A stretch of DNA of 64,000 nucleotides from an uncultured Gammaproteobacteria bacterium (GTDB lineage: Bacteria; Patescibacteriota; Microgenomatia; UBA10105; UBA927), in NCBI GenBank assembly GCA_964349125.1, contig CAYGFH010000001.1, positions 644,801 to 708,800 of the forward strand, read 5' to 3'. Numbering within the stretch: the stretch's first letter is position 1; every line of letters begins with the position of its first letter. The position numbers were made by a program, and so were the translations under genes. The notes beneath the pieces are model-generated. The model made no database searches. It saw nothing but the letters and a program-made list of their open reading frames with translations, and was not told the origin of the DNA. Positions 18,078 through 47,960 of the stretch are shown here, piece by piece.

Positions 18078-18080
18078 AGA

Positions 18081-26023: not shown

Positions 26024-26260
26024 TTAAAATCCTTTCTGCAAGATACTCACGAGGAGGGTTATCGTCGACCCGAATAGCATATACAGTCCAATGACTAACA
26101 GTAACGAACACACAACGATTGCGGCAAGGGGCATGACCTTTAACCGCTTAACCAGTATTTTATAGAGCGGTGTGAACGGACCGACTGTCTGAACGGGCAA
26201 ATCGGTAACCTCTTCCCACCGTTTCACAAATTTTTTGAACACTGCATCGTTTGATTTCAT
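26024..26260 (-). CDS. small membrane protein, candidate anti-sigma factor
   Basis: 78 aa. Cytoplasmic N-terminus and a single C-terminal TM. Its start overlaps the stop of the ECF sigma gene (ATGA). Confidence 0.3.
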   Translation of the reverse strand: MKSNDAVFKKFVKRWEEVTDLPVQTVGPFTPLYKILVKRLKVMPLAAIVVCSLLLVIGLYMLFGSTITLLVSILQKGF

Positions 26261-26808
26261 ATGGATATAAAAAGCTCCACAAATGCTTTGCGCGCGCGGA
26301 ACAGTTGTGACTCTGCGCCTTTCATGGATAAGGCGAATTTACTTGCGATGTCAGATACTGACAGATTTTCTACGTATTTTGATACGAGAAGTGATTTGTA
26401 ATGAGGCAACAGTTTACCAAATACCGTCTGTATTTTTTCCTTAAGTAGCACGATGTCCAGCTCCTCTTCCGGATTTTTCTGTGACGATATGAGCGTTTCT
26501 AAATTTGGCATCTGAGAAAATACCATTTGCTTTAATTTTTTGCGTCTGTAAAAATCGATGATTTTATTGTGGCAAATCGCATAGAGGAATGTGGTGATAC
26601 TGGAGTTTCCGTGAAAGTCCCGCAATGCTTCCAAAAAGGCAAATAACGTATCCTGCAGTATTTCTTCGCAATCCGCCGGGTTATTTACTTTTGTCCGAAT
26701 ATACGAGGTGAGTTTCGGCGTGTATCGCCTGTAAAATACCGCCAGTGCCTTCCGATCTCGAGCGAGTATTTGACGAATCAGGAGTGTATCATTAGCGTGA
26801 TCAATCAT
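26257..26808 (-). CDS. RNA polymerase sigma-70 factor, ECF subfamily
   Basis: 183 aa. Region 2 (LQDTLFAFLEALRDF, FLYAICHNKIIDFYRR) and region 4 HTH (LSVSDIASKFALSMKGAESQLFRARKAF). Confidence 0.75.
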   Translation of the reverse strand: MIDHANDTLLIRQILARDRKALAVFYRRYTPKLTSYIRTKVNNPADCEEILQDTLFAFLEALRDFHGNSSITTFLYAICHNKIIDFYRRKKLKQMVFSQMPNLETLISSQKNPEEELDIVLLKEKIQTVFGKLLPHYKSLLVSKYVENLSVSDIASKFALSMKGAESQLFRARKAFVELFISI

Positions 26809-26862
26809 AAGAATGTGGGAAAACTATACCACACACTCCATGGTTCCCACAAATTTATACAA

Positions 26863-26893
26863 ATTGACAGGACCGCACAAACTGCCATACACT
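26863..26893 (+). promoter_or_regulatory. candidate promoter for pilin array (-35 TTGACA at 26863-26868, -10-like TACACT at 26888-26893)
   Basis: TTGACA, a 19-nt spacer, then TACACT. ATG at 26903 implies a very short or leaderless 5'UTR. Confidence 0.3.
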
Positions 26894-26902
26894 ATTAGAT
26901 AT

Positions 26903-27226
26903 ATGGAGCGAGTCTATGCAGCTGTAGAAATCGGAAGTGAGTTCCCTTCATTAACACGCATAACAAGTCTTGGAGGGCTCTTGTCCGTCATCGTGCCAAA
27001 CGCCTTCATGCTGGCAGGGGTCATAGCCTTCCTTTTGTTAGTATTCGCCGGATTTGGTATGATACAGGCTGCGGGATCAGGTGATACAAAGCAAATGGAG
27101 TCAGGTAAAAAAGCGATTACAGGAGCTGTCATCGGCCTTCTCGTCATAATTGGATCGTTCTGGATTATTCAAATACTAGAGACATTAACAGGCATGAAGG
27201 GTCAAATCCTTCCGCCCATGAGATAA
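26903..27226 (+). CDS. VirB2/TrbC-like T4SS pilin paralog 3
   Basis: Start taken at MERVYAAV. Two TM helices flanking the loop IQAAGSGDTKQMESGKKAITGAVIGLLVII. Confidence 0.5.
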   Translation: MERVYAAVEIGSEFPSLTRITSLGGLLSVIVPNAFMLAGVIAFLLLVFAGFGMIQAAGSGDTKQMESGKKAITGAVIGLLVIIGSFWIIQILETLTGMKGQILPPMR

Positions 27227-27233
27227 TACAACT

Positions 27234-27596
27234 ATGTGGAAAGTATACGCAGATGACATTGTGGGTTCCGTGACAAACCCGCTCCCGGCACAGTATAAAA
27301 ATATAATCGGCGGAGGCACAGGTGGGGGACTTATCCTGTTTATGAGTAACATCTTGAGACTGGTGTTCGTCGTTGCCGGAATATTTGCATTTTTTAATTT
27401 CATCGTTGCAGGATTTCAGTACATGAATGCTGGCGGTGATGCTAAGTCGGTTTCGGCAGCGTGGGACAGAATTTGGCAATCGCTGATGGGATTGGTTATT
27501 ATCATTGGCTCTTTTGCGATGGCCGCACTTATGGGACAGGTATTTTTTGGCAATCCGAATGCAATATTAAGCCCGACGATATACGGTCCAAACTAA
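27234..27596 (+). CDS. VirB2/TrbC-like T4SS pilin paralog 4
   Basis: 120 aa. Gly-rich N-terminus, then TM1, loop MNAGGDAKSVSAAWDRIWQSLMGLVIII and TM2. Confidence 0.5.
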   Translation: MWKVYADDIVGSVTNPLPAQYKNIIGGGTGGGLILFMSNILRLVFVVAGIFAFFNFIVAGFQYMNAGGDAKSVSAAWDRIWQSLMGLVIIIGSFAMAALMGQVFFGNPNAILSPTIYGPN

Positions 27597-27597
27597 T

Positions 27598-27975
27598 ATG
27601 ACAAAAGTTCTTGCAGCATCACAACCACTCGGCACAATCGGAGGTGGAAGTTCAGGCGAACTCGGACCTTTTGCAGGGAAAAGTCTTAATAATCCACTTG
27701 ACGCCATAACTGGATACGTTAGTTCCATCGTGGGGATGCTTACGATTTTTGCGAGCATTTGGTTTTTATTTATGTTATTGTTCGCAGGGTATGAGTGGAT
27801 TAGTGCGGGCGGTGATGCCAAAAAAATCGCTTCTGCACGTGATCGCATCACACATGCGTTTGTGGGACTTGTCATTGTCATCGGATCTTGGAGTTTACTC
27901 GCCGTCACAGGACAGTTTTTTGGCTATGATACTTTATTGGGTTCAGGCGCAAATGAATATTTTAAATTAAAATAA
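27598..27975 (+). CDS. VirB2/TrbC-like T4SS pilin paralog 5
   Basis: 125 aa. Loop ISAGGDAKKIASARDRITHAFVGLVIVIG. Starts 2 nt after the previous stop. Confidence 0.5.
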   Translation: MTKVLAASQPLGTIGGGSSGELGPFAGKSLNNPLDAITGYVSSIVGMLTIFASIWFLFMLLFAGYEWISAGGDAKKIASARDRITHAFVGLVIVIGSWSLLAVTGQFFGYDTLLGSGANEYFKLK

Positions 27976-27979
27976 CACC

Positions 27980-28336
27980 ATGAATTCAAAAATCCTTGCA
28001 GCACTGAGCAATCCGGTATTACCCAACACCATCGGTGGTGGGGCAGGAGCAAATTATCAGCAGGGTGGGCGTGCGCTCGGGTCACTTATTAGCGGTCTTG
28101 TCGGAGCGCTGTTTATCGCAGGATTTCTTTTGGCATTCTTCTTCCTCATTACGGGCGGCATTACGTGGATCAGTGCAGGCGGAGATAAAGCAAAACTGGA
28201 AGCTGCACGGGATAGAATCACAAACTCTATCATAGGTATTATCATTGTGGGAGCATCATTTGCATTGACGGCTCTTGTTGCTGGATTCTTCGGATTTGAA
28301 CTGAATACCCTCCCAATACCCACGGTCGGACGGTAA
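27980..28336 (+). CDS. VirB2/TrbC-like T4SS pilin paralog 6
   Basis: 118 aa. Loop ISAGGDKAKLEAARDRITNSIIGIIIVGA. Confidence 0.5.
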   Translation: MNSKILAALSNPVLPNTIGGGAGANYQQGGRALGSLISGLVGALFIAGFLLAFFFLITGGITWISAGGDKAKLEAARDRITNSIIGIIIVGASFALTALVAGFFGFELNTLPIPTVGR

Positions 28337-28353
28337 GTTTCTCAAAGAAGACA

Positions 28354-28400
28354 TTGACATTGCGCGTTATTTTGCGCAACAATGAAAAATAGGATATAAT
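28354..28400 (+). promoter_or_regulatory. internal promoter with near-palindromic operator-like element upstream of pilin paralog 7
   Basis: -35 TTGCGC (28372-28377), 17-nt spacer, -10 TATAAT (28395-28400), and an upstream TTGACA (28354-28359). ATTGCGCG-ttatttt-GCGCAACAAT is an imperfect inverted repeat overlapping the -35. AGGAGG sits 9 nt before the ATG at 28426. Confidence 0.45.
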
Positions 28401-28425
28401 CAATGTATATAAATAGGAGGAACGT

Positions 28426-28755
28426 ATGAAAGTATTTGCAGCAGATCCACAAATCACCATTGGCCAACCATCAAATATTAAAATTGGAGATATCGGCCAA
28501 CTCATTAGTGCTCTTGTGGGAACGCTCCTTATTATCGCAGCACTGCTCGCTTTCTTCTTTCTGATTCTCGGTGGTATTCAGTGGATAACTTCCGGTGGTG
28601 ATAAAGCAGGCATGGAAGCCGCCAGAAACAAAATTACTCATGCGATTGTCGGACTTATCATTGTTGGAGCCGCATGGGCGGTTATGCTCCTCATCCAGAA
28701 CTTTTTGGGAGTCACGATCATTGGCGGCGCGGTAAATTTCCCAAAGCCATATTAA
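28426..28755 (+). CDS. VirB2/TrbC-like T4SS pilin paralog 7
   Basis: 109 aa. Loop ITSGGDKAGMEAARNKITHAIVGLIIVGA. Strong SD. Confidence 0.5.
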   Translation: MKVFAADPQITIGQPSNIKIGDIGQLISALVGTLLIIAALLAFFFLILGGIQWITSGGDKAGMEAARNKITHAIVGLIIVGAAWAVMLLIQNFLGVTIIGGAVNFPKPY

Positions 28756-28875
28756 CAGTGATTCTGGAATCTTGAATAAAGAATCATGGGGTTAGGGCAA
28801 ACGTGTATTGTTCGGTTTTCCATAATTCGTTATTCCTGATTCATTATTAACGCCCTCTCGTGCTACAATATACGT

Positions 28876-29259
28876 ATGAATTTCAAGCGATTTTCTGCAA
28901 ATATCGCGGTTATTGCCACGTCACTGCACCTTGCTCCATACGTTGTTGCTGAAGAACTTAGCACCTACAAAGACACAGATGTCGCTACTCTTAGTTCTCT
29001 CGAGGGATTGTTTAGTAACGCCGTAAGAACCGTGGTCTCTCTCTCCGCGGTAGGACTGTTCCTTATGTTCATCGCGGGCGGGTTTTCATTTTTATTCTCA
29101 GGCGGAGACCAAAAGAAGCTAGAGCAGGCTCGTGGCACCCTTACGAATGCAATTATTGGGCTTGTCGTCATATCATGCGCTTATCTGATCCTTCGAATCA
29201 TTGGAACATTTACGGGCACCTTGGATACCATTACCACATTTAAGATTTTTCAGGAGTAA
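28876..29259 (+). CDS. VirB2/TrbC-like T4SS pilin paralog 8
   Basis: 127 aa. Signal peptide, then loop FSGGDQKKLEQARGTLTNAIIGLVVIS. The upstream TGCTACAAT is -10-like. Confidence 0.5.
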   Translation: MNFKRFSANIAVIATSLHLAPYVVAEELSTYKDTDVATLSSLEGLFSNAVRTVVSLSAVGLFLMFIAGGFSFLFSGGDQKKLEQARGTLTNAIIGLVVISCAYLILRIIGTFTGTLDTITTFKIFQE

Positions 29260-29261
29260 CT

Positions 29262-30785
29262 ATGATTGACGTTCTTACATATATACACAATAATAGGAAG
29301 AGCATGATTCGTCTACTTTCCTCAACTCTACTTTTTATACTTTTTTTTGCAACTCTCCCTTCGGCAAATGTCTATGCGCAAAATCCTGCACCTGCACCCG
29401 TGCAGACATCGTCGTGGAAACAGTCCACACCCTTTTCATTTGGCAGCGCACTTGAAGGGACAGCGATGAATGCCCAATCAGCATGGCACACAGGGACACA
29501 GTACGTCATGTATTCGCTGACCTGTCTTATCACTGGAGCAGATTGTTCATACAAATTAGAGGATTTGCCTGCGAATATGTGTGGAAGCGCGTTGGGACAT
29601 ATAGATAAATCCATCGCAGCAACATTTGTAAATAGGCCTGCAGACACTGGACTGTGGCTCGCTGATACAGGAAGAACATTAGGGTTCCTCCCAAGGGAGG
29701 CAGTAGCGCAGGGTATAGGATTTTCAGGAATGCAACCGTTATTGCCTATTTGGAAAGCATTTCGAAATATTTCGTATATGTTGATGGCCGTTGTCATGAT
29801 CGCACTGGGATTTATGATCATGTTTCGCAAAAAAATAGATCCAAAAACGGTTGTCACTGCACAAAACGCAATTCCTAGAGTGGTGATAGCACTGATACTT
29901 ATCACATTTTCGTACGCTATCGTCGGTGTGCTTATCGATTTTATGTACGTCATCATCTACTTCTTAATTGCGCTGTTTAAGTCAACAGGGCTACTGGATA
30001 ATCCATCGTACCCTGTGTGTTTGGCGTACAAGACGCCTGAATTGCTCTATGGTCAGGGCGGCATGATGGCAAACTTCATGAATATCCCGAAGGATCCCTA
30101 TAGATTAATATTCGGCGCTACAGATAATTTTCTTGCAAACTCAGGCACCCTTTCAGGTATTGGGCTGGTGTTGGCCCTACTGGGAACTGCGGCATCAGTG
30201 CCTCCTGTCGCGACCGGAATTGCCGCTGGTGCGTTTATTGGGCTTCCGATTTTGCATCTTATTATTTCTATAATCATTATCTTTTTGTTCCTGCGATTGG
30301 CATTCTTTTTTCTGGGAGCCTATATACAAATTGTCATTTCACTGTTATTGGCACCGTTGCAGCTATTGTTTGAAGCGGTTCCTGGGAGCACGGCATTTTC
30401 CTCATGGATTTCAAATCTGATAGCGAATCTGGCGGTATTCCCTGTTGGCGCTGCGATGTTTATGCTGTCAAACGTATTTACCCATTTTGCAAATGTTAAT
30501 TCTGGCACTATCTGGGCTCCTCCGTACGCTCCAATATCCGGTAACGCATCGCAACTGTCTGCCATTATTGCTTTAGGTGTGTTGTTTGCCATACCGCAGA
30601 CTGCCGGCGCCATAAAAGAGGCGCTAAAGGCAAAGCCGGTTATGGGTGGTGGCAGTGGCAGTGGCGGCGGATTGCAAAATGCAGCGACGATACTGTCAAT
30701 GGCGTACTATGCACAGTCATTCACTCCACAAGGATTGAAGGATAGGATTTTCGGTGGGGGTGGAGACAAAAAAGGTGGGCATTAA
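29262..30785 (+). CDS. TrbL/VirB6-like polytopic T4SS membrane protein
   Basis: 507 aa. Signal peptide, ~130-aa extracytoplasmic N-terminal domain, at least 6 TM helices and a Gly-rich C-terminal tail. Sits directly after the pilin array (3-nt gap). Confidence 0.45.
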   Translation: MIDVLTYIHNNRKSMIRLLSSTLLFILFFATLPSANVYAQNPAPAPVQTSSWKQSTPFSFGSALEGTAMNAQSAWHTGTQYVMYSLTCLITGADCSYKLEDLPANMCGSALGHIDKSIAATFVNRPADTGLWLADTGRTLGFLPREAVAQGIGFSGMQPLLPIWKAFRNISYMLMAVVMIALGFMIMFRKKIDPKTVVTAQNAIPRVVIALILITFSYAIVGVLIDFMYVIIYFLIALFKSTGLLDNPSYPVCLAYKTPELLYGQGGMMANFMNIPKDPYRLIFGATDNFLANSGTLSGIGLVLALLGTAASVPPVATGIAAGAFIGLPILHLIISIIIIFLFLRLAFFFLGAYIQIVISLLLAPLQLLFEAVPGSTAFSSWISNLIANLAVFPVGAAMFMLSNVFTHFANVNSGTIWAPPYAPISGNASQLSAIIALGVLFAIPQTAGAIKEALKAKPVMGGGSGSGGGLQNAATILSMAYYAQSFTPQGLKDRIFGGGGDKKGGH

Positions 30786-30896
30786 CGTGTCTTTAAATAC
30801 CCAACTCATCGCCTTTTTTGGCTACATGGATAATTAAAATCCAGAAAAAAGATACGAGATATTGAAGATTATCTCAGATAGTCGCACGTGTGCATA

Positions 30897-33800
30897 TTAA
30901 TGGTGGGCACCACCACCACCACCACCACTGCCTTTACTTCCACCGCCCCCCTCATCATATCCTTCTTTTGCGGTTTTAGCTCCTAACCCAATGGAAATGC
31001 CAAGCCCAGCAAGTCCGGCAAGATAGTATGTATAAATCCTCCAAGGCGCATCGGTGTGATGATGTTTTCCGTCTATTCCTACATATTCCCATATTAATCC
31101 CATTTCTTTTTCCATGTATGTATTCATTCCTGGAGCTGTGGTTCCGAAGGCTTCTTTTAAATCCTTTTGAAGTTGTTCCCACATCCCATGGCGCTCATTT
31201 ATGGTGGTTGCCAAGTCGCCATGATCTCCAACGTTGCCAGTAACTCGCCTAATCGGAGAGTTTTTTAACTGATTAAACACCGATCCGTAAATCAACCAAT
31301 CATCCGCTCTGTCCATTGCGGTAATATTCATCCACGATCCACCAACTACCGCCACGCCTCGTGCCGCAAACTGTCCTCCATATGTAAATAGAATATTTTT
31401 CTTCAAATCAGGGAGAGCTTTCTGGAAAGGTTCAAATGAACGAACACCAAGTAAATCGACAACCATTGTTGCGCTTGCTTGTGCAGATCCATTATCGCCA
31501 GCCACACGAGCAATGCCACATTTCTCAGACTTACCTGATTCTTCTCCTATGTATCCCGACACTCGCTCAACGACATCTGCATTGGAGTGTTTCTTATTTA
31601 CACTATATTGCGAACCAGGAGCCTCCAAGGGATTGTCAAGAAATTTTTCTCTCGACTCAAGATCTTGAACATCAATGTATGTATCAACCATATCGGACAT
31701 AGTTAACCGCTTGAGTTGCGGTTCTTGTGTAACAAAGTTAGATAATTCTTTTTTTAATTTAATAAACTTATCTTTATTCACCCCCATATTTTTACACACA
31801 GTTGTTAGCACCCCATCTTGAATTTCGGTTGGGCCATGATGCCAGTTTATAGGGCCACCGCCAGTTTTTTCAAAAGATAATAGCTCGTCAGTGATACGGT
31901 CGGTGATTTTCATATACTGTATGGCTAGATCTGGTCTGTCTGCGCTTATAGTAGCAGCTTCTTTAGTTTTGATGTGTGAGAAAACTCCTTCAAAATATCC
32001 ACCATTGACCATCGCTTTATATTTTTCTATTGTTTCATAGTGATTGTGCTCAATAAGATCTTGAAAGCTTCTAGTGGTCAGGTATTCTCCCTGTACATGA
32101 AGCACTCCAGGCTGACCATGTTCACCATGCATAAGCTTATGGGCTATATGCTCGCGCTGGTGCGCTGATTCAGCACCAATAAACTCACCACCTAAAATGC
32201 GCTTATAATCGCCAACACCGATCCCCCTTGTCCAGGCATCTGCGCCGTATATAAGATCGTACATATCGATTTTAGGTTTACATACCCACGACGCACCCTC
32301 ATATCCGTACCCACCTATCACAAGGTCAGCATACTTCATACCCTCTTTGAAATTTATTACCTCCTCCAATTGATGGCGTGTGAGCGCTTCTATGGTTTTT
32401 GGTGGGTTTTTTACAGGATATCCTTTTAAATCATGACCAAAATGGAATCCTAACATCTGCTCAATACGCTCTTTTCGCTTTCCGGGATCCATTTCATATA
32501 CATCAAGTGCATCTGCGGCGATTCTTAACTTATATGATGGATCTTGCATTGCTTGATCCACCATTATTTTGGTTGCCTCTGTCACGCCTGTTATTTCTGC
32601 ATATTGATGAGCCATTACACGCATGTGAAGTTTGCTTGCAGGATCCATAAGATCCCAACGCTCAATAAGATGTTCATACATTTGCCTCGCCTGTAGATAT
32701 TGTGACAATCCAGATTCTCCGCCATACTTAGGGCCTTGAAAATTTTGACCGTCACTGGCGCCAGGGCTTAAGGCTTTTGTACGCGTATAGACCTCGCGAA
32801 GTGTGACCGTGTTAAGCTTTTGCGCTTCCAATACTACCCCTTTTATGACATCACTACTAAACTCCATTGTCTCATTTTGAATACCGATTTTTCGACAAAG
32901 TCCAGAATAATCATATTTACCATCAAGGGATTCCTTTATTGATGAGCGATTTTGGAAATGATTAGTAAAGTGTTCTCCAAATTCTTTTTTGTTTGCTTCC
33001 AGAACGTACTGCAAATCAAACCGCATACTATCCATTTCCTTATCACCGATTCGCTGTTTATGTCCACGCTCAAAATTTCGTTTATAAATATCGCCCAAGT
33101 CGTCTAATATGTGGTTTGCAGTTCCATTGATAAATCCTCCGTCAGCCTTGATGTCATAAATACCTCTATCCCCTAAAGCACCTAACACACTCACTTGTGT
33201 TTTTTTAATATCCATTCCCATCTTCATAACACCATAGGAGTAATCGATGTTGTCTTTTGCTTGAATGATACGGCTAATTTCTCGTAGTCTTTTGACACGA
33301 TCTTTAAAGAATGGGTGCTCCTTCATTTTAACCAGATCAGTTCTATAAACAGGTGTTCCATCAGGATTCGTCAGCGGCTTTTTATCTGGACCGAGAAAAC
33401 GCTCTGTTGTCACCTCAATAGGAGTTTTTGTTGCATCGGCGATTTCCTTTCGCCATTCAGGGTTTTCCATAAGCTCTTGAATGTCAGATTCATATTTAGA
33501 GCTTGCGTAATACTCAACGACTTGCTGTAGTTGTCGTTGAATTTGTTGCGGAACCGCGCCTCGAGTGTCAAACCCGACAGCTTCATTGTATTTACGATAC
33601 AGTTGGTTGAACCCCCATTCAGGGTATAATACCGTCAATTTTCGCACATCTGAGGCTAGAAACATGGAACTGTACTGATCCATAATACTTTCTCCACGCT
33701 CGGGTCTATTACGATATATTTCTTCTTGAAGCCTACGTGACTCTGTCTCTGCAGCATCAGCCATTGATTCAATCACATTCTGAGGATTACCCACTTTATT

Positions 33801-34994: not shown

Positions 34995-35041
34995 AGATAT
35001 TTATATTGTATCGTGAGGCTATAGAGACTTCAAGCTACAGG

Positions 35042-35596
35042 TTACTGATACAAGCTGTGGGCTTGTATGTACAGCGATATGTGCTGGGGCACCAGTTGAC
35101 TAATGGGCAATCCTCTTTTCACCCTCTCCCGAATTTTTGTGGAAGAGATATTGCTCCCCACAAGCAATTCATCGGAGATAACATGCATGTTTGGATACAA
35201 TGGCTCATTTGGATATCCATACCGTGGAAATACCAGAAAAGGTAGCTCTTGTAATAGCTGCTGCCACTCCTGCCATAAATGCAGTGTTGGCAGTTGATCA
35301 GAGCCGATGATAAATGAGTAGGTGTGTTCTTTGGGCAAAAAAGGAAGGATGTGAACGGTTTCTCCGTCCAGTTGATTATCTATTTCGATAGTAGAGACCT
35401 GAGTTCTTGGAAGTTCTATAAGTCGGGTCATAGCAAGTCTATCTTCTACAGAAGCAACGGGTTTGGGAGGGCTTTGATGGAAGTTTGGCAAAAACCATAC
35501 TTCATCAGTCTCGGTAAAATCCAGCACCTGCTGGGCAATCATCAAGTGCCCGATGTGAGGGGGGTTAAATGCGCCACCGAGAAGTGCTATCTTCAT
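35042..35596 (-). CDS. nadD: nicotinate-nucleotide adenylyltransferase
   Basis: 184 aa. ALLGGAFNPPHIGHL (the H.GH nucleotidyltransferase motif) and a C-terminal ISST.IR motif. Confidence 0.8.
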   Translation of the reverse strand: MKIALLGGAFNPPHIGHLMIAQQVLDFTETDEVWFLPNFHQSPPKPVASVEDRLAMTRLIELPRTQVSTIEIDNQLDGETVHILPFLPKEHTYSFIIGSDQLPTLHLWQEWQQLLQELPFLVFPRYGYPNEPLYPNMHVISDELLVGSNISSTKIRERVKRGLPISQLVPQHISLYIQAHSLYQ

Positions 35597-37785: not shown

Positions 37786-37953
37786 GGGTTCATATTATCA
37801 CAAACAACAGGTGCTTCATGCTTGAGCATGATTCGACCCCACGCCGAGATGATCATCATTGTCGGCGTGAAAACTCAAATAATGAGTTTTCACGGTCCTG
37901 ATGCGCTTTGTGCTATTGCTAAACCCATAATACATTCGTAGAATATTTATACC

Positions 37954-39324
37954 ATGGATCAGCATCCTGTCCCACAAAATGTCACCACATTTCAGTTCCG
38001 GCTTATCGGAGACATGACCATTAAGCAATTCGGGCACCTCGCGGGCGGCGCCATCCTTGCCTACATTTCGTACAAACTCCCGCTGCCGTTCTTTTTTTCT
38101 TGGCCACTTACCATTATCTTTGCTCTCGGCGGCATTGGATTTGCGTTTGTTCCCATCGAAGAACGACCGATGGACGTTTGGGTGCTGTCTTTTTTGAAAA
38201 ATGTATATAGTCCAACTATATACGTGTGGGAGAGGTCGCCAAGCGTAATCACACCTGTGGTTTCACGGGTACAACCAGTGCACCCTAGTGCCCCTGTTAT
38301 CGCACCGCGTCAACAGCCATCGCCCCCCGCAGTCAGACCTCCGTTGCCGCAGGGGCAAATGGCAGCGCAAGTGCACCCGACCCAACCTGTTGCACAGAAA
38401 TCAGCTGCAAGCGTTGTAAATACCATGTATGCCGCGAAACTCGCCACAGGACAACAGTACACCTCACAGGGACAATTGCCTCAACAGCAAGCGCCTGGAA
38501 TGTTTGACTGGCTATCATCACTCTTTTGGCCAAAGACACGGATACAGATCCCTCAGCCCACACCCCAACAGGCCCCTCATATGGCAACACCTTCTGTGGT
38601 GGGTAATCATCTTGATATGTCCACTCCCCCGGCTGTTGCAAAACAGCCTATCAACACGCCTCCACGAGATTCTGAAGAGAAAAAAGAAAAACTGGATGAA
38701 AAACTCTCTGTACTTAAGCACGAACTGGAAGACCACTCCATTTCTCAGGCGCGAATTTTGGAACTTCAAAAGCAACTAACGGAAGTGCTGATGCAAAAAG
38801 ATATAATGGCCGCCGAAATGCAGGCCATGCAAAAACAACTAAACACGGTGGCTGCTCCCCAATCAGCTTTGCCAGTACGGCCAACGATCCCCTCGGCACA
38901 ACAACAACAGGTACCCCAGCCCACGCCACAACAGAAGCAACCGACAGTAAAGATTATTACGCCCGAAGGGGCCGTACGAGCGGGGCTTCCACGACTGACG
39001 ACATTCCCCAACGTGGTAACAGGCATTACAAAGGACAGCGATAACAATCTTCTTCCTGGTGTGCTTGTTACTGTAAAGGATAAGGATGGAGTCCCTGTGC
39101 GCGCTCTCAAAACAAACAGGCTTGGTCAGTTTGCCGCATCGACTCCGCTATCAAATGGTGTGTACTTTGTAGAGATAGAGGATCCAAGACAACGATATAC
39201 CTTTGACCGGGTGCAAATAACACTCAACGGGTCCATTGTCCCGGCATTGGAAATTATTACAAAGAGTCAAAAGCAGATATCACGGGATAAACTGGCAAAA
39301 GAATTATTTGGAAACACAGCATAA
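37954..39324 (+). CDS. PrgI/VirB3-like membrane protein with long Pro/Gln-rich linker, coiled coil and C-terminal beta domain
   Basis: 456 aa. The N-terminus FQFRLIGDMTIKQFGHLAGGAILAYISYKLPLPFFFSWPLTIIFALGGIGFAFVPIEERPMDVWVLSFL resembles the PrgI/VirB3 family (two TM). This is followed by ~200 aa of P/Q-rich low complexity, a coiled coil, and a C-terminal region with a carboxypeptidase-regulatory-like beta pattern (LPGVLVTVKDKDGVPV). Confidence 0.4.
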   Translation: MDQHPVPQNVTTFQFRLIGDMTIKQFGHLAGGAILAYISYKLPLPFFFSWPLTIIFALGGIGFAFVPIEERPMDVWVLSFLKNVYSPTIYVWERSPSVITPVVSRVQPVHPSAPVIAPRQQPSPPAVRPPLPQGQMAAQVHPTQPVAQKSAASVVNTMYAAKLATGQQYTSQGQLPQQQAPGMFDWLSSLFWPKTRIQIPQPTPQQAPHMATPSVVGNHLDMSTPPAVAKQPINTPPRDSEEKKEKLDEKLSVLKHELEDHSISQARILELQKQLTEVLMQKDIMAAEMQAMQKQLNTVAAPQSALPVRPTIPSAQQQQVPQPTPQQKQPTVKIITPEGAVRAGLPRLTTFPNVVTGITKDSDNNLLPGVLVTVKDKDGVPVRALKTNRLGQFAASTPLSNGVYFVEIEDPRQRYTFDRVQITLNGSIVPALEIITKSQKQISRDKLAKELFGNTA

Positions 39325-39325
39325 T

Positions 39326-39985
39326 ATGACAGACGCAATCGTCCCTATCAAATCCACCACACAGGTTTTCACAGAGGTGGAAGCCATCGAACAAAATATT
39401 CTTATTTTTGTCGACGGTTCATGCTCGTTGGTTATTTCTGCATCAGCTGTTAATTTTGGTCTGTTGTCTGAGCGTGAACAAGACGCAATTATATCATCAT
39501 ATGCCGGACTGCTAAACTCTCTGTCTTTTCCGATTGAATTACTTATTCGCACACAGCACAAAGATGTTACTGCATACTTGCATCTGTTGGAAGACCAGGA
39601 GAGAAAACAGACAAATCCAAAACTCGCAAAAAGCATTCATGATTATCGAATTTTTGTGGCTGCAACGGTAAAAGAAAAGGATGTTTTGGATAAAAAGTTT
39701 TATATTGTTGTCCCTTTTTCGAGTCTTGAGCTCGGAGCATCGCCCAGCGTGTTTTTTGGTACCAAAAAGCGGGGCTTGCCATATAAAAAGCAATATATTA
39801 TCGAAAAGGCGCTTTCGGCCCTCAATCCAAAGCGGGATCACGTTATTCGATTGCTAAACAAACTTGGCCTTCATGCGCATCAGCTTACTAATGAGCAATT
39901 AGTAAAACTCCTCTTTACTACGTATAACGCCGGTGTGCCCACTCCTGATGACGAAACAATACATAAGGCACTTCACTCAACATAG
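39326..39985 (+). CDS. VirB4 N-terminal-domain-like protein (probable 5' portion of a split virB4)
   Basis: 219 aa. IFVDGSCSLVISASAVNFGLLSEREQDAIISSYAGLLNSLSFPIELLIRTQ resembles the CagE/TrbE/VirB4 N-terminal family block. It ends at a TAG that is in-frame with the downstream VirB4 ATPase ORF (6-nt gap). Confidence 0.45.
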   Translation: MTDAIVPIKSTTQVFTEVEAIEQNILIFVDGSCSLVISASAVNFGLLSEREQDAIISSYAGLLNSLSFPIELLIRTQHKDVTAYLHLLEDQERKQTNPKLAKSIHDYRIFVAATVKEKDVLDKKFYIVVPFSSLELGASPSVFFGTKKRGLPYKKQYIIEKALSALNPKRDHVIRLLNKLGLHAHQLTNEQLVKLLFTTYNAGVPTPDDETIHKALHST

Positions 39986-39991
39986 AACAAT

Positions 39992-41926
39992 ATGACATCT
40001 TTTTTTCAAAAAATTCTTGGTCAACAGATACCCACACAGGTAAGTGCGCCGGTCGTGCATTCAACTGATCCGATTAGCGTTTGTGATCTCGTTGCCCCTC
40101 CTTCCATCGAAGTGGATTTTGATATGCTAAAAATTGGAGGATATTACTATAGAACATTATTTATTGCAGGGTACCCTCGTTTTGTCAGCGCAAACTGGCT
40201 TGAGCCGCTTATTTCATTCAACCACACACTGGATATTTCCATGTATATATATCCCACAAGAAGCGAAGAGGTGCTTGAAAATCTCAAGCGTAAGGTTGGT
40301 GAAATGGAAGCAACCATACAGTCGGATATGAAAAGAGGCCGAGTTATTGAACCATCAATTCAAGTGGCATTAGAAGACGCGCTGGCGCTTCAACAGGAGC
40401 TCGCTAAGGGCGCTCAGCGATTCTTTCAATTTGGATTGTATGTCACCATACCGGCAAGAGACATAGAAGACTTAAATAAAGCGAGCAAACAAGTTGAGGC
40501 AACGCTATCATCACTGCTCATTGTGACAAAACGGGCAACTTTGCAAATGGATGAGGGTTTTAAGACTACCCTTCCCATGGGTCAGGATAGAATTGTTGTG
40601 ACAAGAAACATGGACACAACATCACTCGCCACCACATTTCCGTTTACCACATCTGAACTCACCGCAAATGAAGGAATTCTCTACGGCATCAATCAACACA
40701 ATGACAGTCTTGTTATTTTTGACCGCTTTACATTGGAGAACGCCAATACAGTGGTGTTCGGAAAGTCAGGCGCCGGAAAATCGTTTTTAGTGAAGCTCGA
40801 GATTCTTCGAAGTCTTATGTTTGATACTGAGGTAATTGTCATTGATCCTGAAAATGAATATGAAACACTCACACATGCGCTGGGTGGCGAGTATATCCGG
40901 TTTCATTTTGGAGCAACCACAAAAGTGAATCCTTTTGACTTAGCACTCTTGCATCAGAAGGGCGCGATACAGGAAGATAGTGAGCTAAATCAAAAAATTT
41001 TATCGCTTCATGGGTTTTTCCGTGTTGTCATGGGCAAACTAAACGCTATGGAAGACGCGCTGCTTGATCGGGCGTTAATCCTGACATATAAAATGAAGGG
41101 AATTACGCCTGACCCGGAAACACAGTCAAAAGAACCACCGCTCATGGAGGATTTATATAAAACGCTGGTTGGCATGGAAGACACTGTAGCGAGAGGTTTA
41201 GCTGATCGTATCGAAAAATTTGTAAAGGGAAGTTTGGTTGGTATATTTGACCATCAAACTAATTTTGAAATCAGAAATCAATTAACCGTATTTTCAATTC
41301 GAGATCTTGAAGATGAACTGAGACCAATAGCTATGTATCTCATTCTGGATTTTATCTGGACAAAGGTGCGCAGAAATATCAAAAGACGCATTTTGATAGT
41401 TGATGAGGCATGGTATATGATGAAGTATCCTGACTCTGCCGCTTTTTTAAACTCTATTGCTAAGAGAGCCAGAAAATATTATCTCGGACTGACAACTATC
41501 ACGCAGGACGTTGAGGATTTCATGTCCGTTGATCTTGGAAAAACAATTATTCAAAACAGCTCGCTGCAGATTTTACTCAAACAATCAACGGCAGCGATAG
41601 ACAGAATTGCAGACGTGTTTTTTCTCTCTGAAGGCGAGCGCCACTTTTTACTGTCTGCAGGTGTTGGAGAAGGACTTTTCTTCGCGGGAAGCGCGCATGC
41701 CGCAATTAGAGTGATCGCATCTCCTCAGGAAACTGCACTTATCACGACAAAACCGCAGGATCTTCAGGCAAAAGCAGACGCCGCGACGTCTCCCCCTGTT
41801 ACCAAGCCAGCGGCTATGTCAGTCGAGGTTATCTCTCCCGCTCAACCTGTACAAACGGATGTTCACCCGCTTGGAACAGCAAATCGACCTATATTCACCA
41901 CAGAATCTCTGCCAGAAAAACCATAA
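39992..41926 (+). CDS. virB4: VirB4/TrbE-family type IV secretion ATPase (ATPase portion)
   Basis: 644 aa. Walker A VVFGKSGAGKSF, VIVIDPENEY and Walker B ILIVDEAWYMM, plus the upstream GGYYYRTLFIAGYPRFV...LDISMYIYP block typical of VirB4. About 180 aa shorter at the N-terminus than typical VirB4. Confidence 0.8.
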   Translation: MTSFFQKILGQQIPTQVSAPVVHSTDPISVCDLVAPPSIEVDFDMLKIGGYYYRTLFIAGYPRFVSANWLEPLISFNHTLDISMYIYPTRSEEVLENLKRKVGEMEATIQSDMKRGRVIEPSIQVALEDALALQQELAKGAQRFFQFGLYVTIPARDIEDLNKASKQVEATLSSLLIVTKRATLQMDEGFKTTLPMGQDRIVVTRNMDTTSLATTFPFTTSELTANEGILYGINQHNDSLVIFDRFTLENANTVVFGKSGAGKSFLVKLEILRSLMFDTEVIVIDPENEYETLTHALGGEYIRFHFGATTKVNPFDLALLHQKGAIQEDSELNQKILSLHGFFRVVMGKLNAMEDALLDRALILTYKMKGITPDPETQSKEPPLMEDLYKTLVGMEDTVARGLADRIEKFVKGSLVGIFDHQTNFEIRNQLTVFSIRDLEDELRPIAMYLILDFIWTKVRRNIKRRILIVDEAWYMMKYPDSAAFLNSIAKRARKYYLGLTTITQDVEDFMSVDLGKTIIQNSSLQILLKQSTAAIDRIADVFFLSEGERHFLLSAGVGEGLFFAGSAHAAIRVIASPQETALITTKPQDLQAKADAATSPPVTKPAAMSVEVISPAQPVQTDVHPLGTANRPIFTTESLPEKP

Positions 41927-41929
41927 ACC

Positions 41930-44242
41930 ATGGATGATGATAAAAAAAAGATAACCTTAAAAGAATACATTGACTCTGCACAGATCGCTTCGGGTGTAGA
42001 AAAGTTCGACGTATCAGGATTTTTATCGGGGCTGGATGCATACGGAGCGATGCCAGAAGGTGTTTCTGGAATTGTGGCCAGCCTATACACCTCCGCTCCG
42101 GATCGTCGTGCCAGTCTCATAAAACAGCTATATGCAGAGCTTCAGGCGGCGCCGGGATCATCAGAAGCGCCGAACCTCCCGCAACTATCAACCTCCGAAG
42201 AAGTTCAATCCGCGCTTCCTGTTGCAGCCGTTTCAGAGAGAAGGAGACAAGCGCACATAGATACGGGTGCATATGTCATACATCAGCATGACATGCGAAG
42301 CTCTGAGCTGAAGTCTGTTGAAAAAAACATACGATGGCGCAGAGAGGTAACACAACAATTTTTTGCAAAGATTCAAAAGAAAAGGCTGTACGAATCAATT
42401 GGTGTTCCAGAATCAGAAGCAAAAAAAGCAATTGAGAAAGCACTGGAAGAGCCAATTTATGAGACGAATCGAAAAAAAATTGAAAAAATCATAGCAGAAC
42501 GCATAAGCAATCACGAGGTTTTTAGGCAAAACAAGGAAGAGTTCCAGGGAATCTTCGAAGAAGTTGCGTCAACAGCAACAGTATCCTATGCCCCTCTTTC
42601 AGACGAATTGACAAGAACAGCGGTGGGGGCCGTGCTCGAAAACAGGACGCTTGAGGACGTTCGCCCAGTATTAAATACATTTGCTTCAGTGTCGCAGCAA
42701 GACGGGTATGCGTCACCGTTGGAGCTTAGTGCTGCAGTCAAAAAAGCAAAGATAGTTGCAAGCGTCGCCGCGGGTAAACCCAACGATCTAAAGATAGATT
42801 CAGCTGCGGCACTGAGTTTTAGCACGAGTATTCGGTCGATTCAACAGTCACCAGAGCACAAAAAAAGGGTGGTTGAAAAAGTTGCGGTTGATGACTACGG
42901 TCGATCGTTGGTTGAGAGCGGAGAGGTGGATGAGTTTATTCGGAGAAGCGAAAAATACTCAGCACATTCGCTTAAAAACAAAGTTACCGGATATGTTGCT
43001 CCGGCGTATTCTCCGGACACCGATGCGATTGAATACATTGCCGCAGAAATTCGGCACAACCCAACAGGGCTAGCGACCGCTGAGGGCTTATATATGGCAA
43101 AGGCGCACGCCAGCACATCTCATCCCACGCACTTTGAATTTCATCTCCCTGATTTTTCTTGGTTTATTCGTTCTGGACAAAAACAACCAGGGCTAACCGT
43201 GGCGGGAAAGACAATTACTGGCGGATTAGCAAGAGAGCTGGGAACACAGGCATTACTTAAGATGGGATTTGGTGCAACATCTAAGATTGTGCTTGTCGGA
43301 GCGCCTGTAATTGGATGGGCAATCCTGCTTTGGACCACATTTTCGGGAACAATTAAAAATGTGGCAAATTCGACAGTCGGAAAACTGTTAAACGGCGGAC
43401 TTGGATCTCTCCGTGCAGCAAGTGGAGCCTTTGGCGGTTTTGTTCAAAATGCACTACATACCAAATATGAAGATCCAGCCGCAGTAAATGCCACGAGCCT
43501 TGCGGTGTTTGCGGCCGTTGCTCCAATCATCTTGACCATGGGACTTGTCTTTCAAACAATGGCTACGCATCGCGCACAGTTTTTGCCTATTAGCTCTGGT
43601 ATTGCTCCAGGAGGCCCCCCCATTGACTGCACGCAAGAACCGGATAAGAGTGGGCCTGCGTGCAACCTTTCAAAATGCGAGGTTAAAAAGCCCGGTGATT
43701 GCCAGTGGCCGTTAGAAAAGACCTCTGGTGCGTGTATTATAGAAGGACCCTTCGTAGGGACGCACAGCTCGTGTGGTCTTTCAGGAGTCGATTTTATTTC
43801 CCGAGACGCAAACCAGGCCGGGCTTTTCGGTGCCAAGGTGTTTACTCCTTATGCTGGGACGGTCGAGGCGTCCGTATTTGGCTACGATGATTACAGTGGC
43901 AAGGCGGGTAGTCAAGATGGTGGGACATATGGAAATCATGTTATTGTAAAAACAGAGGATGGTGGAAGACTCATGTTTGCACATCTACGCAACATCCAAA
44001 CGGTTAACTCTGGTGATTCCGTCGATTCAGGGACGGTGGTTGGCTTTGTTGATAGCACGGGATACTCTCTTGGGGTACATTTGCACTATGAGGATCTGGG
44101 CGCATCAAGAACATGTCCGAGAAGCGGAGCTGATATAAATAAATATACACCGTTTCCTGTGCCTGCTTGCGAAGGGTTCGCAGACTGCGACGCAAAACTC
44201 AGAGCAGAGGGTCACGCCGCATGCTTATCAGAAATGCCATGA
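41930..44242 (+). CDS. large membrane-associated M23 (LytM-type) peptidase, likely cell-wall hydrolase of the secretion system
   Basis: 770 aa. The C-terminal M23 domain (GTYGNHVIVKTEDGGRLMFAHL...GVHLHYE) follows a central hydrophobic region with several TM helices and a long charged, helical N-terminal region. Confidence 0.7.
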   Translation: MDDDKKKITLKEYIDSAQIASGVEKFDVSGFLSGLDAYGAMPEGVSGIVASLYTSAPDRRASLIKQLYAELQAAPGSSEAPNLPQLSTSEEVQSALPVAAVSERRRQAHIDTGAYVIHQHDMRSSELKSVEKNIRWRREVTQQFFAKIQKKRLYESIGVPESEAKKAIEKALEEPIYETNRKKIEKIIAERISNHEVFRQNKEEFQGIFEEVASTATVSYAPLSDELTRTAVGAVLENRTLEDVRPVLNTFASVSQQDGYASPLELSAAVKKAKIVASVAAGKPNDLKIDSAAALSFSTSIRSIQQSPEHKKRVVEKVAVDDYGRSLVESGEVDEFIRRSEKYSAHSLKNKVTGYVAPAYSPDTDAIEYIAAEIRHNPTGLATAEGLYMAKAHASTSHPTHFEFHLPDFSWFIRSGQKQPGLTVAGKTITGGLARELGTQALLKMGFGATSKIVLVGAPVIGWAILLWTTFSGTIKNVANSTVGKLLNGGLGSLRAASGAFGGFVQNALHTKYEDPAAVNATSLAVFAAVAPIILTMGLVFQTMATHRAQFLPISSGIAPGGPPIDCTQEPDKSGPACNLSKCEVKKPGDCQWPLEKTSGACIIEGPFVGTHSSCGLSGVDFISRDANQAGLFGAKVFTPYAGTVEASVFGYDDYSGKAGSQDGGTYGNHVIVKTEDGGRLMFAHLRNIQTVNSGDSVDSGTVVGFVDSTGYSLGVHLHYEDLGASRTCPRSGADINKYTPFPVPACEGFADCDAKLRAEGHAACLSEMP

Positions 44243-45216
44243 AAAAATTTATTGTGTTTTTATTTATAATTACAGTGGTCGTGTTGCTGGTTATCGTGTG
44301 GTCTACTCGTAAGAATTCCGTGGTTCAGACGCCTCAGAACGATCTCCTTCCTCCTAGAACAGCACCGTTGTTGTCTGCCCCACGCAACATAGTGTTTCCT
44401 GGTGAAGAAAATGTGGTATTCTCTTATGGTGTCGCGTTGCCTGAACTTCCAAAAGAATTGCCTTCTTACTCAACAGCGTACCCGCAAAATATAGATGTCT
44501 CAGTTGCGGAGCTTGCCAAGATTTGGGGATTTACCTCACCGCTAAAAAAACCGGTTCCGTATGTATTTGATTGGGTCGAAAAAGATAAAAATCTTTCGGT
44601 AAACACTCGGACAAACACACTTACTTTTGCTTATTTTTATCCTGCTACAAGCTCTTCTATGGTTCGTAGACTCGCGCAGGGGTCGGTTTTAAAGGACATC
44701 GCTGACGTTGGACTTCTCCCAAAGAGTCTCCTGCTAACAGAGACATCAAGAGAGGTGGATACCACACAAGGGGAGGGTCTTGATACAGAGGGTTTTCCCT
44801 CAACATTCATCTTCTATCAATACAAACTGGCAAATCAGCCGTATCCGTTTATATTCACAGGAGTAAATCAATATGCCGCAACCATTAGAGTATTGGCCGA
44901 TGGTGGCGTTGTTTCTTTTTCGCTGAGACTTCCTCCGTTTGTTAAGCCGCTAGAAAGCAAAAAAACGCTCACTCATGACGAAATATTGTTGTCGCTAAAT
45001 GAAAACAAAGGCATACTAACTCGCGCAGGAGAGAAGTTTGGGTCAGACCCGTACAAACAAGTGGACAGCTTCTCTTCGGTTGAAATATCTTCTATTACTA
45101 TTGGATTTTTCTTTGACGCTGAAACAAAAAATTTTGACCCAATATACGTAATTTCAGGTACTGCGTTTGGGGACAGGGCCTATTCCGTCACATATTATCT
45201 GCGTGCAACGATGTGA
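44239..45216 (+). CDS. hypothetical secreted/membrane-anchored protein (VirB8/PrgL-position)
   Basis: 325 aa from MKKFIVFLFIITVVVLLVIV. Its start overlaps the upstream stop (ATGA). Single N-terminal TM, then a soluble domain. No motif recognised. Confidence 0.4.
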   Translation: MKKFIVFLFIITVVVLLVIVWSTRKNSVVQTPQNDLLPPRTAPLLSAPRNIVFPGEENVVFSYGVALPELPKELPSYSTAYPQNIDVSVAELAKIWGFTSPLKKPVPYVFDWVEKDKNLSVNTRTNTLTFAYFYPATSSSMVRRLAQGSVLKDIADVGLLPKSLLLTETSREVDTTQGEGLDTEGFPSTFIFYQYKLANQPYPFIFTGVNQYAATIRVLADGGVVSFSLRLPPFVKPLESKKTLTHDEILLSLNENKGILTRAGEKFGSDPYKQVDSFSSVEISSITIGFFFDAETKNFDPIYVISGTAFGDRAYSVTYYLRATM

Positions 45217-46530: not shown

Positions 46531-46539
46531 CAAAACAAA

Positions 46540-47943: not shown

Positions 47944-47960
47944 TCTGGGTTATATCATAT

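Follow-up and report, generated by a model that had tools for sequence, protein, structure and literature searches.

Wang 2023 described in the Saccharibacterium Southlakia epibionticum an 'apparent T4SS' (type IV secretion system) whose genes SEML1_0006-0019 are located beside dnaA and dnaN and proved essential in transposon sequencing (PMC10633639). This system is closest to the conjugative systems of Gram-positive bacteria, comprises an essential series of pilins and has neither coupling nor relaxase proteins (PMC10633639). In Table S2 of that study dnaA, dnaN and recF are followed by the genes of two exported proteins, a lysozyme and a 1113-aa protein with a C-terminal wall peptidase, and then by those of VirB4, a small protein, PrgI, a 998-aa protein, an NTF2-like protein, a 1088-aa VirB6 and six pilins of family PF18895; ComF, a tRNA-Ser and a further pilin are encoded near the cluster (PMC10633639). 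Here we report on a related locus at positions 26,024 to 45,216 of a stretch of 64 kb from contig CAYGFH010000001.1, in the following called the window. We conclude that this locus is very probably the Gottesmanbacteria (Microgenomatia) form of the T4SS of the Patescibacteria clade, in which conjugation machinery of the monoderm MPF-FATA type has become fixed in the chromosome beside oriC and has lost its relaxase. The window is part of a Candidatus Gottesmanbacteria chromosome.

In a survey of the Patescibacteria VirB4 was found in 2,417 of 3,035 genomes and forms a monophyletic clade inside MPF-FATA (Quinonero-Coronel 2025, PMC12102498). TrsD beside VirB4 was the commonest accessory gene, PrgI was present, relaxases were almost completely missing, dnaA and dnaN were nearby, and the VirB2 genes formed arrays of 2–11 genes, abundant in Microgenomatia and with a mean paralogue identity of ~25% (PMC12102498). 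VirB6 was scarce in Microgenomatia, and extreme divergence was suggested as the reason (PMC12102498). A 2025 review regards the Patescibacteria T4SS as a new branch of the superfamily (PMC12857230). In addition, a 2025 preprint reports VirB2-like pilins (PrgF of pCF10) in most Gram-positive T4SSs (10.64898/2025.12.18.695078), so that a monoderm system with pilins is not an exception any more.

The locus and its described relatives

The open reading frames (ORFs) of the window, including all large non-overlapping ones of at least 150 aa, were scanned with Pfam and NCBIfam profiles. At the locus these scans identified VirB4, a TrsD-like protein, PrgI/VirB3, eight VirB2-like pilins, a homologue of the type IV coupling proteins (T4CP) and an M23 hydrolase. 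The four perfect DnaA boxes that the window contains all fall within 46480-47969. Thus, the component matches and the DnaA boxes bear out what the initial annotation of this DNA had proposed, namely a chromosomal T4SS-like apparatus adjoining oriC, with nadD inside the locus and dnaN and dnaA abutting it, and nearly all of its gene calls were found at or near the coordinates it had given. Its suggestion of an undescribed variant cannot be maintained, as the system has already been published (PMC10633639; PMC12102498; also reviewed in PMC12857230) and the layout is ordinary for the phylum apart from one protein of 1365 aa.

Related loci were collected by scanning GTDB species genomes with the VirB4 protein, which yielded 80 loci (L001–L080) with VirB4 identities of 58–87%, and further loci came from metagenome contigs retrieved via the family of the 507-aa membrane protein described below. 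The set of PrgI, TrsD and VirB4 is present in 77–78 of the 80 genome loci, and in 61 of them dnaN and dnaA are at most 10 kb away from virB4. In Gottesmanbacteria-type loci and in the metagenome contigs the genes follow in the order HMG-CoA reductase, Yip1-like protein, anti-sigma factor and extracytoplasmic function (ECF) sigma factor (all on the minus strand), six pilins and the 507-aa protein (plus), the 1365-aa protein, nadD and the T4CP (minus), PrgI, TrsD, VirB4, the M23 protein and a 325-aa protein (plus), and dnaN and dnaA (minus). The block is syntenic in dozens of Patescibacteria genomes, mostly near dnaN and dnaA.

The gene content of the window parallels the overall plan of SEML1_0001-0019, genes that score as essential in transposon sequencing. 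Both clusters are chromosomal and lie beside dnaA and dnaN, both contain six tandem PF18895 pilins with a polytopic VirB6-type neighbour and are devoid of a relaxase, and in both PrgI, a small TrsD-like protein, VirB4, a large protein with a C-terminal wall peptidase and exported proteins are encoded in this order. Nevertheless, the VirB6-like protein has only 507 aa here and is not recognised by TrbL models, whereas that of S. epibionticum has 1088 aa. A T4CP homologue is encoded inside the locus, unlike in the S. epibionticum cluster, and the operon of the T4CP, nadD and the 1365-aa protein occupies the place of SEML1_0011 and SEML1_0012. The lysozyme gene and a recF gene between dnaN and the cluster are lacking here, and an NTF2-like VirB8 was not confirmed, the 325-aa protein being a possible candidate.

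With the surveyed clade the locus shares the MPF-FATA type VirB4 with adjacent TrsD, PrgI, the VirB2 array, the lack of a relaxase, the vicinity of dnaA and dnaN and a VirB6 that is hard to detect. On the contrary, a T4CP gene near virB4 is a minority feature in the survey (148 of 5,713), and only 22.6% of the Microgenomatia homologues were reported with PrgI close to virB4 (PMC12102498). Moreover, the survey considers a role of pilin diversity in variation or host adaptation possible (PMC12102498), whereas the six paralogues here are old and have colinear orthologues.

The conjugative T4SSs of monoderm bacteria (Prg/Pcf of pCF10, Trs of pGO1, CD1110 of CTn2 and the Embleya system) likewise combine a CD1110-type VirB4, PrgI, a TrsD-like protein and a T4CP with a wall hydrolase, a polytopic VirB6-type protein and a VirB2-like pilin. 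They differ from the locus in several respects: here a relaxase, oriT and replication functions are lacking and the genes are chromosomal and vertically inherited, the pilins number eight and not one, the T4CP no longer has its N-terminal transmembrane (TM) helix and has moved to a divergent operon, and the hydrolase is of the M23 type and not NlpC/P60 or CHAP plus lytic transglycosylase. The closest mobile relative is found on the linear plasmid NZ_CP108778.1 of Embleya sp., whose VirB4 is 38% identical. Its genes encode, in this order, a pilin, a TrbL_4-like protein with six TM helices, PrgI, a small protein, VirB4, a T4CP with one TM helix, a replication-relaxation protein and an NlpC/P60 protein. 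The TrbL_4-like protein (26.1 bits, cutoff 27) has a position equivalent to that of the 507-aa protein. This layout supports the descent of the locus from a pilus-bearing monoderm conjugation system. The pilin of the plasmid is encoded by an unannotated ORF at ~9439-10100 on the plus strand, which matches a hidden Markov model (HMM) of the window pilins with E 2.8e-11 and is thus VirB2-like.

Components of the apparatus

The profile searches suggested with the initial annotation recovered the pilin, coupling-protein, PrgI, VirB4 and M23 families, while TrbL was not matched by the 507-aa protein. The features are collected in Table 1; TM helices were called by a hydropathy scan of 19-residue segments with a mean hydropathy of at least 1.6.

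Table 1. Features of the locus and of its surroundings in the window
Feature	Position	Strand	Remarks
ComFC-like protein	9896-10585	-	double zinc ribbon and phosphoribosyltransferase
tmRNA (transfer-messenger RNA) gene	10977-11395	-	full-length; Rfam RF00023, 108 bits
Outpost pilin A, 160 aa	16519-17001	+	signal peptide, Cys-rich stretch, VirB2-like core; PF18895 E 5.5e-6, 26.8 bits
Outpost pilin B	16967-17362	+	PF18895 E 1.2e-5, 25.7 bits; pilin core present
Mevalonate-pathway operon	17367-25275	-	complete; beside uppS
Yip1-domain membrane protein	25284-25916	-	E 1.1e-9
Putative anti-sigma factor, 78 aa	26024-26260	-	one TM helix at 45-63; start overlaps sigma gene stop by 4 bp
ECF-type sigma factor	26257-26808	-	Sigma70_r2 E 5.6e-14, Sigma70_r4_2 E 2.6e-8; divergent from pilin array
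Promoter-like site TTGACA-N18-TACACT	26864-26893	+	upstream of pil1; top score in promoter scan
Six tandem VirB2-like pilins	26903-29259	+	PF18895 E 3.4e-4 to 4.6e-10
pil1	26903-27226	+	
pil2	27234-27596	+	
pil3	27598-27975	+	
pil4	27980-28336	+	
pil5	28426-28755	+	
pil6	28876-29259	+	
507-aa membrane protein	29262-30785	+	signal/anchor, ~130-aa ectodomain, 6-7 TM helices; candidate VirB6 equivalent
1365-aa orphan protein	30897-34994	-	all-alpha, C-terminal tail anchor, Gly/His-rich tail; last gene of operon with T4CP and nadD
nadD-like nucleotidyltransferase	35042-35596	-	CTP_transf_like E 1.9e-21; housekeeping gene inside operon
VirD4/TrwB-type coupling-protein homologue, 730 aa	35593-37785	-	TrwB_AAD_bind and TraG-D_C matches
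PrgI/VirB3-like membrane protein	37954-39324	+	followed by Pro/Gln-rich linker, coiled coil, C-terminal beta-sandwich-like domain
TrsD-like protein, 219 aa	39326-39985	+	related to N-terminal part of VirB4; ends in TAG
VirB4 ATPase	39992-41926	+	monoderm CD1110/MPF-FATA type; NF045971 conju_CD1110 394.7 bits (cutoff 325)
M23 protein, 770 aa	41930-44242	+	cytoplasmic ~450-aa N-terminal part, two TM helices, extracellular M23 peptidase
325-aa membrane protein	44239-45216	+	one N-terminal TM helix (4-22), alpha/beta ectodomain; conserved position, alignable family
dnaN	45237-46340	-	adjoins locus
dnaA	46540-47943	-	adjoins locus

The VirB4 ATPase also matches P-loop_TraG (E 2.9e-25) and is by identity nearer to the proteins of the Patescibacteria (58–87% in the 80 CPR, or candidate phyla radiation, genomes) than to plasmid proteins, the best of 3,056 plasmid hits reaching 38%. 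The TrsD-like protein matches NF041427 TrsD with E 0.0031 and NF045975, in the N-terminal region of that model, with E 5.7e-8; both scores stay far short of the cutoffs. Previously, both ORFs had been taken for an apparently split VirB4. They are two genes, however, since the TrsD-like ORF ends with its own stop codon, virB4 starts behind it in the same frame, and in 77 of 78 related loci the TrsD-like protein (~216–250 aa) is encoded by a separate ORF. Read-through, a pseudogene or an alternative genetic code were considered for the in-frame TAG and rejected, because the two-gene order is conserved and the other ORFs are intact with table 11. The sole single ORF of TrsD and VirB4 among the 78 loci (820 aa, position 4174-6636 of L026) stems either from a natural fusion or from an error in sequencing.

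The annotated PrgI/VirB3-like protein is confirmed by a PF12666 domain at residues 5–87 which exceeds the cutoff (E 1.9e-7, 32 bits, cutoff 27), and its gene is present in 77 of the 80 loci. The match of its C-terminal domain to CarboxypepD_reg (E 1.4e-4) stays below the cutoff. This beta-sandwich-like domain (38990-39324, residues ~345–456) is the most widely conserved part of the protein, and a domain of this type also ends the ~820–1015-aa proteins encoded just upstream of TrsD in L038, L040, L047–L049 and L054. The M23 hydrolase, too, was annotated correctly (Peptidase_M23 E 7.5e-12); its TM helices are at residues 453–471 and 523–541, and a counterpart is encoded at the same position in all Gottesmanbacteria-type loci. 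From its domains it is predicted to play a VirB1-like role in opening the cell wall; it is not a homologue of VirB1, as it is devoid of a lytic transglycosylase domain.

All eight pilins of the initial annotation, two in an outpost and six in tandem, match the Pfam family PF18895 (T4SS_pilin). Six of them reach the gathering score of 26.6 bits, and pil2 (21.1 bits) and outpost pilin B are just under it. The common core of the eight proteins is TM1–GGxxxxxSxGGDxxK–TM2, and their pairwise identity is 30% on average (range 21–50%). The array begins, as annotated, with the ATG at 26903. Outpost pilin A has hydrophobic segments at residues 3–21, 80–98 and 127–145, and the true start of outpost pilin B is likely the ATG near 17003, right behind the stop of pilin A. 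In 13 of 13 related loci the tandem pilins pil1–pil6 are colinear orthologues, and the identity of the orthologues (43–91%) is above that of the paralogues. For these reasons the six genes are an ancient and differentiated set, which suits one major and several specialised minor subunits better than a recent amplification for antigenic variation. The major subunit is likely pil5, the most conserved of the tandem pilins (72–91% across orthologues), and the other fixed paralogues are likely the specialised minor ones. Five of the six tandem pilins open with the motif M-x-[KR]-[VI]-[FLY]-A-[AD], and they have no classical signal peptide.

The polytopic protein behind the pilins had been annotated as TrbL/VirB6-like. 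Its topology and its position support this call: the hydropathy scan shows about seven hydrophobic segments, and the gene starts 3 nt past pil6 and follows directly after the pilin array in all related loci. In addition, the protein is homologous to a Saccharimonadales protein encoded upstream of PrgI, TrsD and VirB4 (hhalign probability 99.9%). On the other side, a significant sequence match to TrbL or VirB6 is lacking, and this weighs against the assignment. The TrbL, VirB6 and PrgH models of Pfam and NCBIfam do not match the protein itself, among its relatives only one of 11 (E 0.013) and one of 50 (E 0.005) show a TrbL match, and the alignment with the TrbL_4-like protein of Embleya is not significant (hhalign E 0.35). 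A PDB sequence profile search and tblastn against plasmids gave no match either. Thus, it is because of position and topology, and not of sequence, that we infer the 507-aa protein to be the VirB6 equivalent, and when a VirB6 is sought for Microgenomatia, which seemed to lack one, its family is the obvious candidate.

The VirD4-like ATPase of the initial annotation matches TrwB_AAD_bind (PF10412, E 4.8e-7, 29.4 bits, cutoff 20.5) and TraG-D_C (PF12696, 22.1 bits, cutoff 22), both above the cutoffs. Its best relatives in the PDB are TrwB (3e-5) and DotL (6e-5), and with the T4CP annotated on the Embleya plasmid it shares 31% identity over 464 aa (E 8e-71). By hydropathy scan alone, a TM helix was found neither in this protein nor in 15 of 16 orthologues; the N-terminal TM helix that is expected of VirD4/TrwB coupling proteins and is present in the Embleya homologue thus has no counterpart here. 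In 27 loci nadD is conserved between the genes of the T4CP and the 1365-aa protein.

The 325-aa protein is possibly a VirB8-like or other envelope component. The AlphaFold2 (AF2) model from a three-sequence alignment has a pLDDT of only 39.5 and is unusable for a comparison with VirB8. No sequence match was found in the PDB, and a shared-word homologue search, a method too insensitive for fast-evolving families, yielded two proteins.

The 1365-aa protein

The 1365-aa protein belongs to a small orphan family without relatives by sequence or fold. As stated in the initial annotation it has no recognisable domain: Pfam domains are absent from 36 family members, and no T4SS domain is detectable in the protein itself with Pfam and NCBIfam. 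Its description as a giant anchor protein holds insofar as a membrane anchor is present. There is neither a signal peptide nor an internal TM helix; the protein is tail-anchored, since the only hydrophobic helix sits near the C-terminus. In 18 of 18 members examined this helix lies 24–47 residues from the end, and it is followed by a Gly-rich tail, often with His at the end. A full HMMER scan of 1.84e9 cluster representatives returned only 39 representatives, nearly all of 1040–1430 aa, and the shared-word search, again too insensitive for fast-evolving families, gave only four proteins with the single sequence and an 18-sequence profile. Structure prediction and structural search, as recommended with the initial annotation, yielded a confident all-alpha AF2 model (residues 166–1365, 36-sequence alignment, pLDDT 84.8, pTM 0.75) that has no match among solved or viral structures.

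By comparison of the sequences the gene is by far the fastest-evolving of the block. Relative to L004 the identity is 84% for VirB4, 83% for the T4CP, 76% for nadD and 53% for the 507-aa protein, but 21% for the 1365-aa protein. In the metagenome loci it is 24–35% identical where its neighbours have 38–75%, and overall ~20–35% contrast with 40–90% for the neighbouring genes.

The gene of the 1365-aa protein starts 47 nt after nadD, the stop codon of the T4CP gene overlaps the start of nadD, and the arrangement of the three genes is conserved in at least 27 loci. It is conceivable, though less likely than not, that the protein represents a new, lineage-specific accessory family of the T4SS with an unseen fold, which might act as membrane tether and substrate adaptor of the T4CP without TM helix, or might be a substrate that meets the host; the latter would account for a divergence much more rapid than that of all its neighbours. 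The survey mentions neither this protein nor nadD nor a sigma factor (PMC12102498).

It is quite conceivable, if short of probable, that the 1365-aa protein, possibly together with nadD and the T4CP, stands outside the machine and is a lineage-specific cytoplasmic protein tethered to the membrane and encoded in a conserved syntenic block. Its operon contains the housekeeping gene nadD, a T4SS domain is not detectable and the family is confined to a narrow lineage; moreover, synteny alone is weak evidence for a role in the T4SS, because the neighbouring genes for HMG-CoA reductase and the Yip1-like protein are equally syntenic. On the contrary, the gene is co-oriented and closely spaced with that of the T4CP, more distant Microgenomatia loci likewise contain a large ORF, poor in TM helices, that converges on the VirB6-like gene, and the essential cluster of S. 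epibionticum holds large alpha-helical (ARM-like) proteins or domains, SEML1_0011 and SEML1_0013.

Two observations speak against the proposed partnership with the T4CP. The extreme divergence of the 1365-aa protein fits poorly with a tight association with a T4CP conserved at 65–91%, and the large TM-poor ORFs convergent with the 507-aa gene in distant Microgenomatia loci occur even where a T4CP is lacking. As these convergent ORFs recur without T4CP, the 1365-aa protein may go with the VirB6-like gene or with neither. In the comparison with such ORFs, that of L156 gave a marginal result (probability 62%) and that of L131 no homology.

The convergent 3' ends of the 507-aa gene (30740-30785) and of the gene for the 1365-aa protein (30897-31010) both encode Gly-rich tails and are partly complementary to each other (GGTGGGGGTGG and CCACCACCACC). 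A Gly-rich C-terminal tail as a signal shared by both proteins was considered and rejected, as the tail is not conserved in the 507-aa family.

Sigma factor and pilin promoter

The pair of ECF sigma factor and anti-sigma factor precedes the pilin array in divergent orientation in at least 17 loci, among them distant ones whose other upstream genes are different. Because of this conserved adjacency we infer that the sigma factor is linked to the T4SS, a link that gene order suggests. The role of the 78-aa protein as anti-sigma factor is likewise deduced, its gene adjoining that of the ECF sigma factor in at least 13 related loci. The promoter-like site immediately ahead of pil1, however, is sigma-70-like and is conserved too, the pattern TTGAC...TACACT recurring in the aligned intergenic regions of related loci. 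The site ends ~9 nt before the ATG of pil1, so that the mRNA of the pilin operon may be leaderless or nearly so.

Proposed function

The components might cooperate as follows. VirB4 together with TrsD would dock on PrgI and the polytopic VirB6-like protein in the cytoplasmic membrane, and the M23 protein would open the cell wall. VirB4 would then extract pilins from the membrane and polymerise a conjugative-type pilus or channel. The soluble T4CP would bring substrates to this channel, and the tail-anchored 1365-aa protein of the same operon may keep it at the membrane; the basis of this suggestion is the T4CP without TM helix, the C-terminal helix of the 1365-aa protein and the conserved operon that they share. 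The machine would act on contact with a host cell and move macromolecules between epibiont and host, thereby supporting the epibiotic lifestyle.

We therefore picture, from the sequences, a putative pilus-bearing machine that acts on host-cell contact, and weakly favour the export of protein or another macromolecule over the import of DNA. That the T4SS is essential in S. epibionticum suggests a role in obtaining something from the host or in manipulating it. This picture is weakened by two facts. Essentiality has been established only in a Saccharibacterium, S. epibionticum, and not in Microgenomatia, and the distant T4CP homologue that the survey reports for S. epibionticum is not essential (PMC12102498), so that a role of the T4CP in the machine is not assured.

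In an alternative view the locus encodes a DNA-import machine like the archaeal Ced, in which a VirB2-like pilus would contact a donor or host and VirB4 and the T4CP-like ATPase would pull in DNA, from which an organism unable to make nucleotides could draw nucleotides or genes; we regard this as unlikely. Ced (CedA, CedA1, CedA2, CedB) is a chromosomal DNA-import system that derives from conjugation but serves a cellular task and not the spread of plasmids; it comprises pilins of the VirB2 type, a VirB6-like membrane protein and an ATPase of the VirB4 family. As in Ced, pilins and a VirB6-like protein occur in a conjugation-derived machine without relaxase, and parallels to Ced are cited in PMC12102498. 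Furthermore, the T4CP was kept although the relaxase is absent, a ComFC-like gene is present in the window, and VirB4 and the T4CP weakly match CedB (NF041017, 52.5 bits) and CedD (NF053655, 35 bits). These matches are due to the shared ATPase folds and remain far below the cutoffs of 700 and 600 bits. The similarity is thus confined to the level of the ATPases, the phylogenetic position is different, and Ced is not known to have a set of PrgI, TrsD and M23 proteins. In addition, deletion of comEC in S. epibionticum abolishes transformation while viability is kept, whereas the T4SS is essential, and from this the authors argue against DNA uptake as essential source of nucleotides (PMC10633639; PMC12857230).

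Origin and chromosomal setting

In agreement with the initial annotation, which saw neither relaxase nor integrase and no obvious mobile element or plasmid remnant, relaxase and integrase families had no Pfam or NCBIfam match in any scanned ORF of at least 150 aa, which covers the large non-overlapping ones of the window, and att-like repeats were not found in its 64 kb. The locus has a GC content of 0.42–0.48, inside the range of the rest of the window (0.37–0.49); flanking att repeats and a compositional island were therefore rejected. Housekeeping genes lie on both sides, uppS and the mevalonate-pathway operon upstream, dnaN with dnaA downstream.

A decayed or cryptic integrative and conjugative element (ICE) with relaxase and integrase outside the window or recently lost is highly improbable: although genes for VirB4, T4CP, PrgI and a hydrolase are typical of Gram-positive ICEs and the closest plasmid cluster, that of Embleya, has a replication-relaxation gene beside its T4CP, the ORFs scanned in the 64 kb revealed no relaxase or integrase and att repeats were not found, the GC content is within the range of the surroundings, nadD is embedded in the locus, which housekeeping genes and oriC flank, 99% of the closest VirB4 relatives are within the same class (PMC12102498), and the same order beside dnaN, dnaA and the mevalonate operon recurs across many species at 58–87% VirB4 identity, which indicates vertical inheritance.

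The 80 VirB4-related loci carry titles of Gottesmanbacteria, Woesebacteria, Curtissbacteria, Levyibacteria or 'Patescibacteria group', or come from evidently mislabelled metagenome-assembled genomes (MAGs). Many MAGs with CPR synteny and a VirB4 identity of 58–87% are titled 'uncultured Gammaproteobacteria' or 'Pseudomonadales', and two are titled Bathyarchaeia and Nanoarchaeia; such labels outside the CPR are probably wrong.

The mevalonate operon comprises an archaeal-type HMG-CoA synthase and thiolase, an NADPH-dependent HMG-CoA reductase, two GHMP kinases and a diphosphomevalonate decarboxylase. Its 494-aa ORF at 19058-20542 is an apparent fusion of a mevalonate kinase and a Nudix/IPP-isomerase-like domain. 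Related loci have kept the gene of the Yip1-domain protein at its place between that of HMG-CoA reductase and the anti-sigma/sigma pair. At 8315-8764 there are three tRNA-Ser genes on the minus strand side and one on the plus strand. The latter (8679-8764) has according to ARAGORN the unusual anticodon ACT and an Rfam tRNA score of 54 bits; two more tRNA-Ser/Arg genes are located at 5382-5591. Together with the outpost pilins, the ComFC-like gene and the tRNA-Ser genes mirror the surroundings of the S. epibionticum T4SS with its ComF, tRNA-Ser and extra pilin.

Implications

The locus does not add a new kind of system but shows the Microgenomatia layout in detail. The T4SS of the Patescibacteria is the first T4SS that was recognised as essential to its own carrier bacterium. 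Experimental handles are offered by the anchor-less T4CP within the locus, the fast-evolving 1365-aa protein that is apparently co-transcribed with it, the six differentiated pilins, the ECF sigma pair and the VirB6 candidate. As leads, the orphan 1365-aa protein, the fixed pilin set, the linkage to a sigma factor and the T4CP without TM helix are modest but real, and none of the four was met with in the papers cited here. The ECF sigma/anti-sigma pair could tie machine assembly to a signal from the envelope or the host. If the 1365-aa protein is a substrate or adaptor, it would be a first lead on what these machines transport, and if it is a substrate that meets the host, it would be a determinant of the host range of these epibionts.

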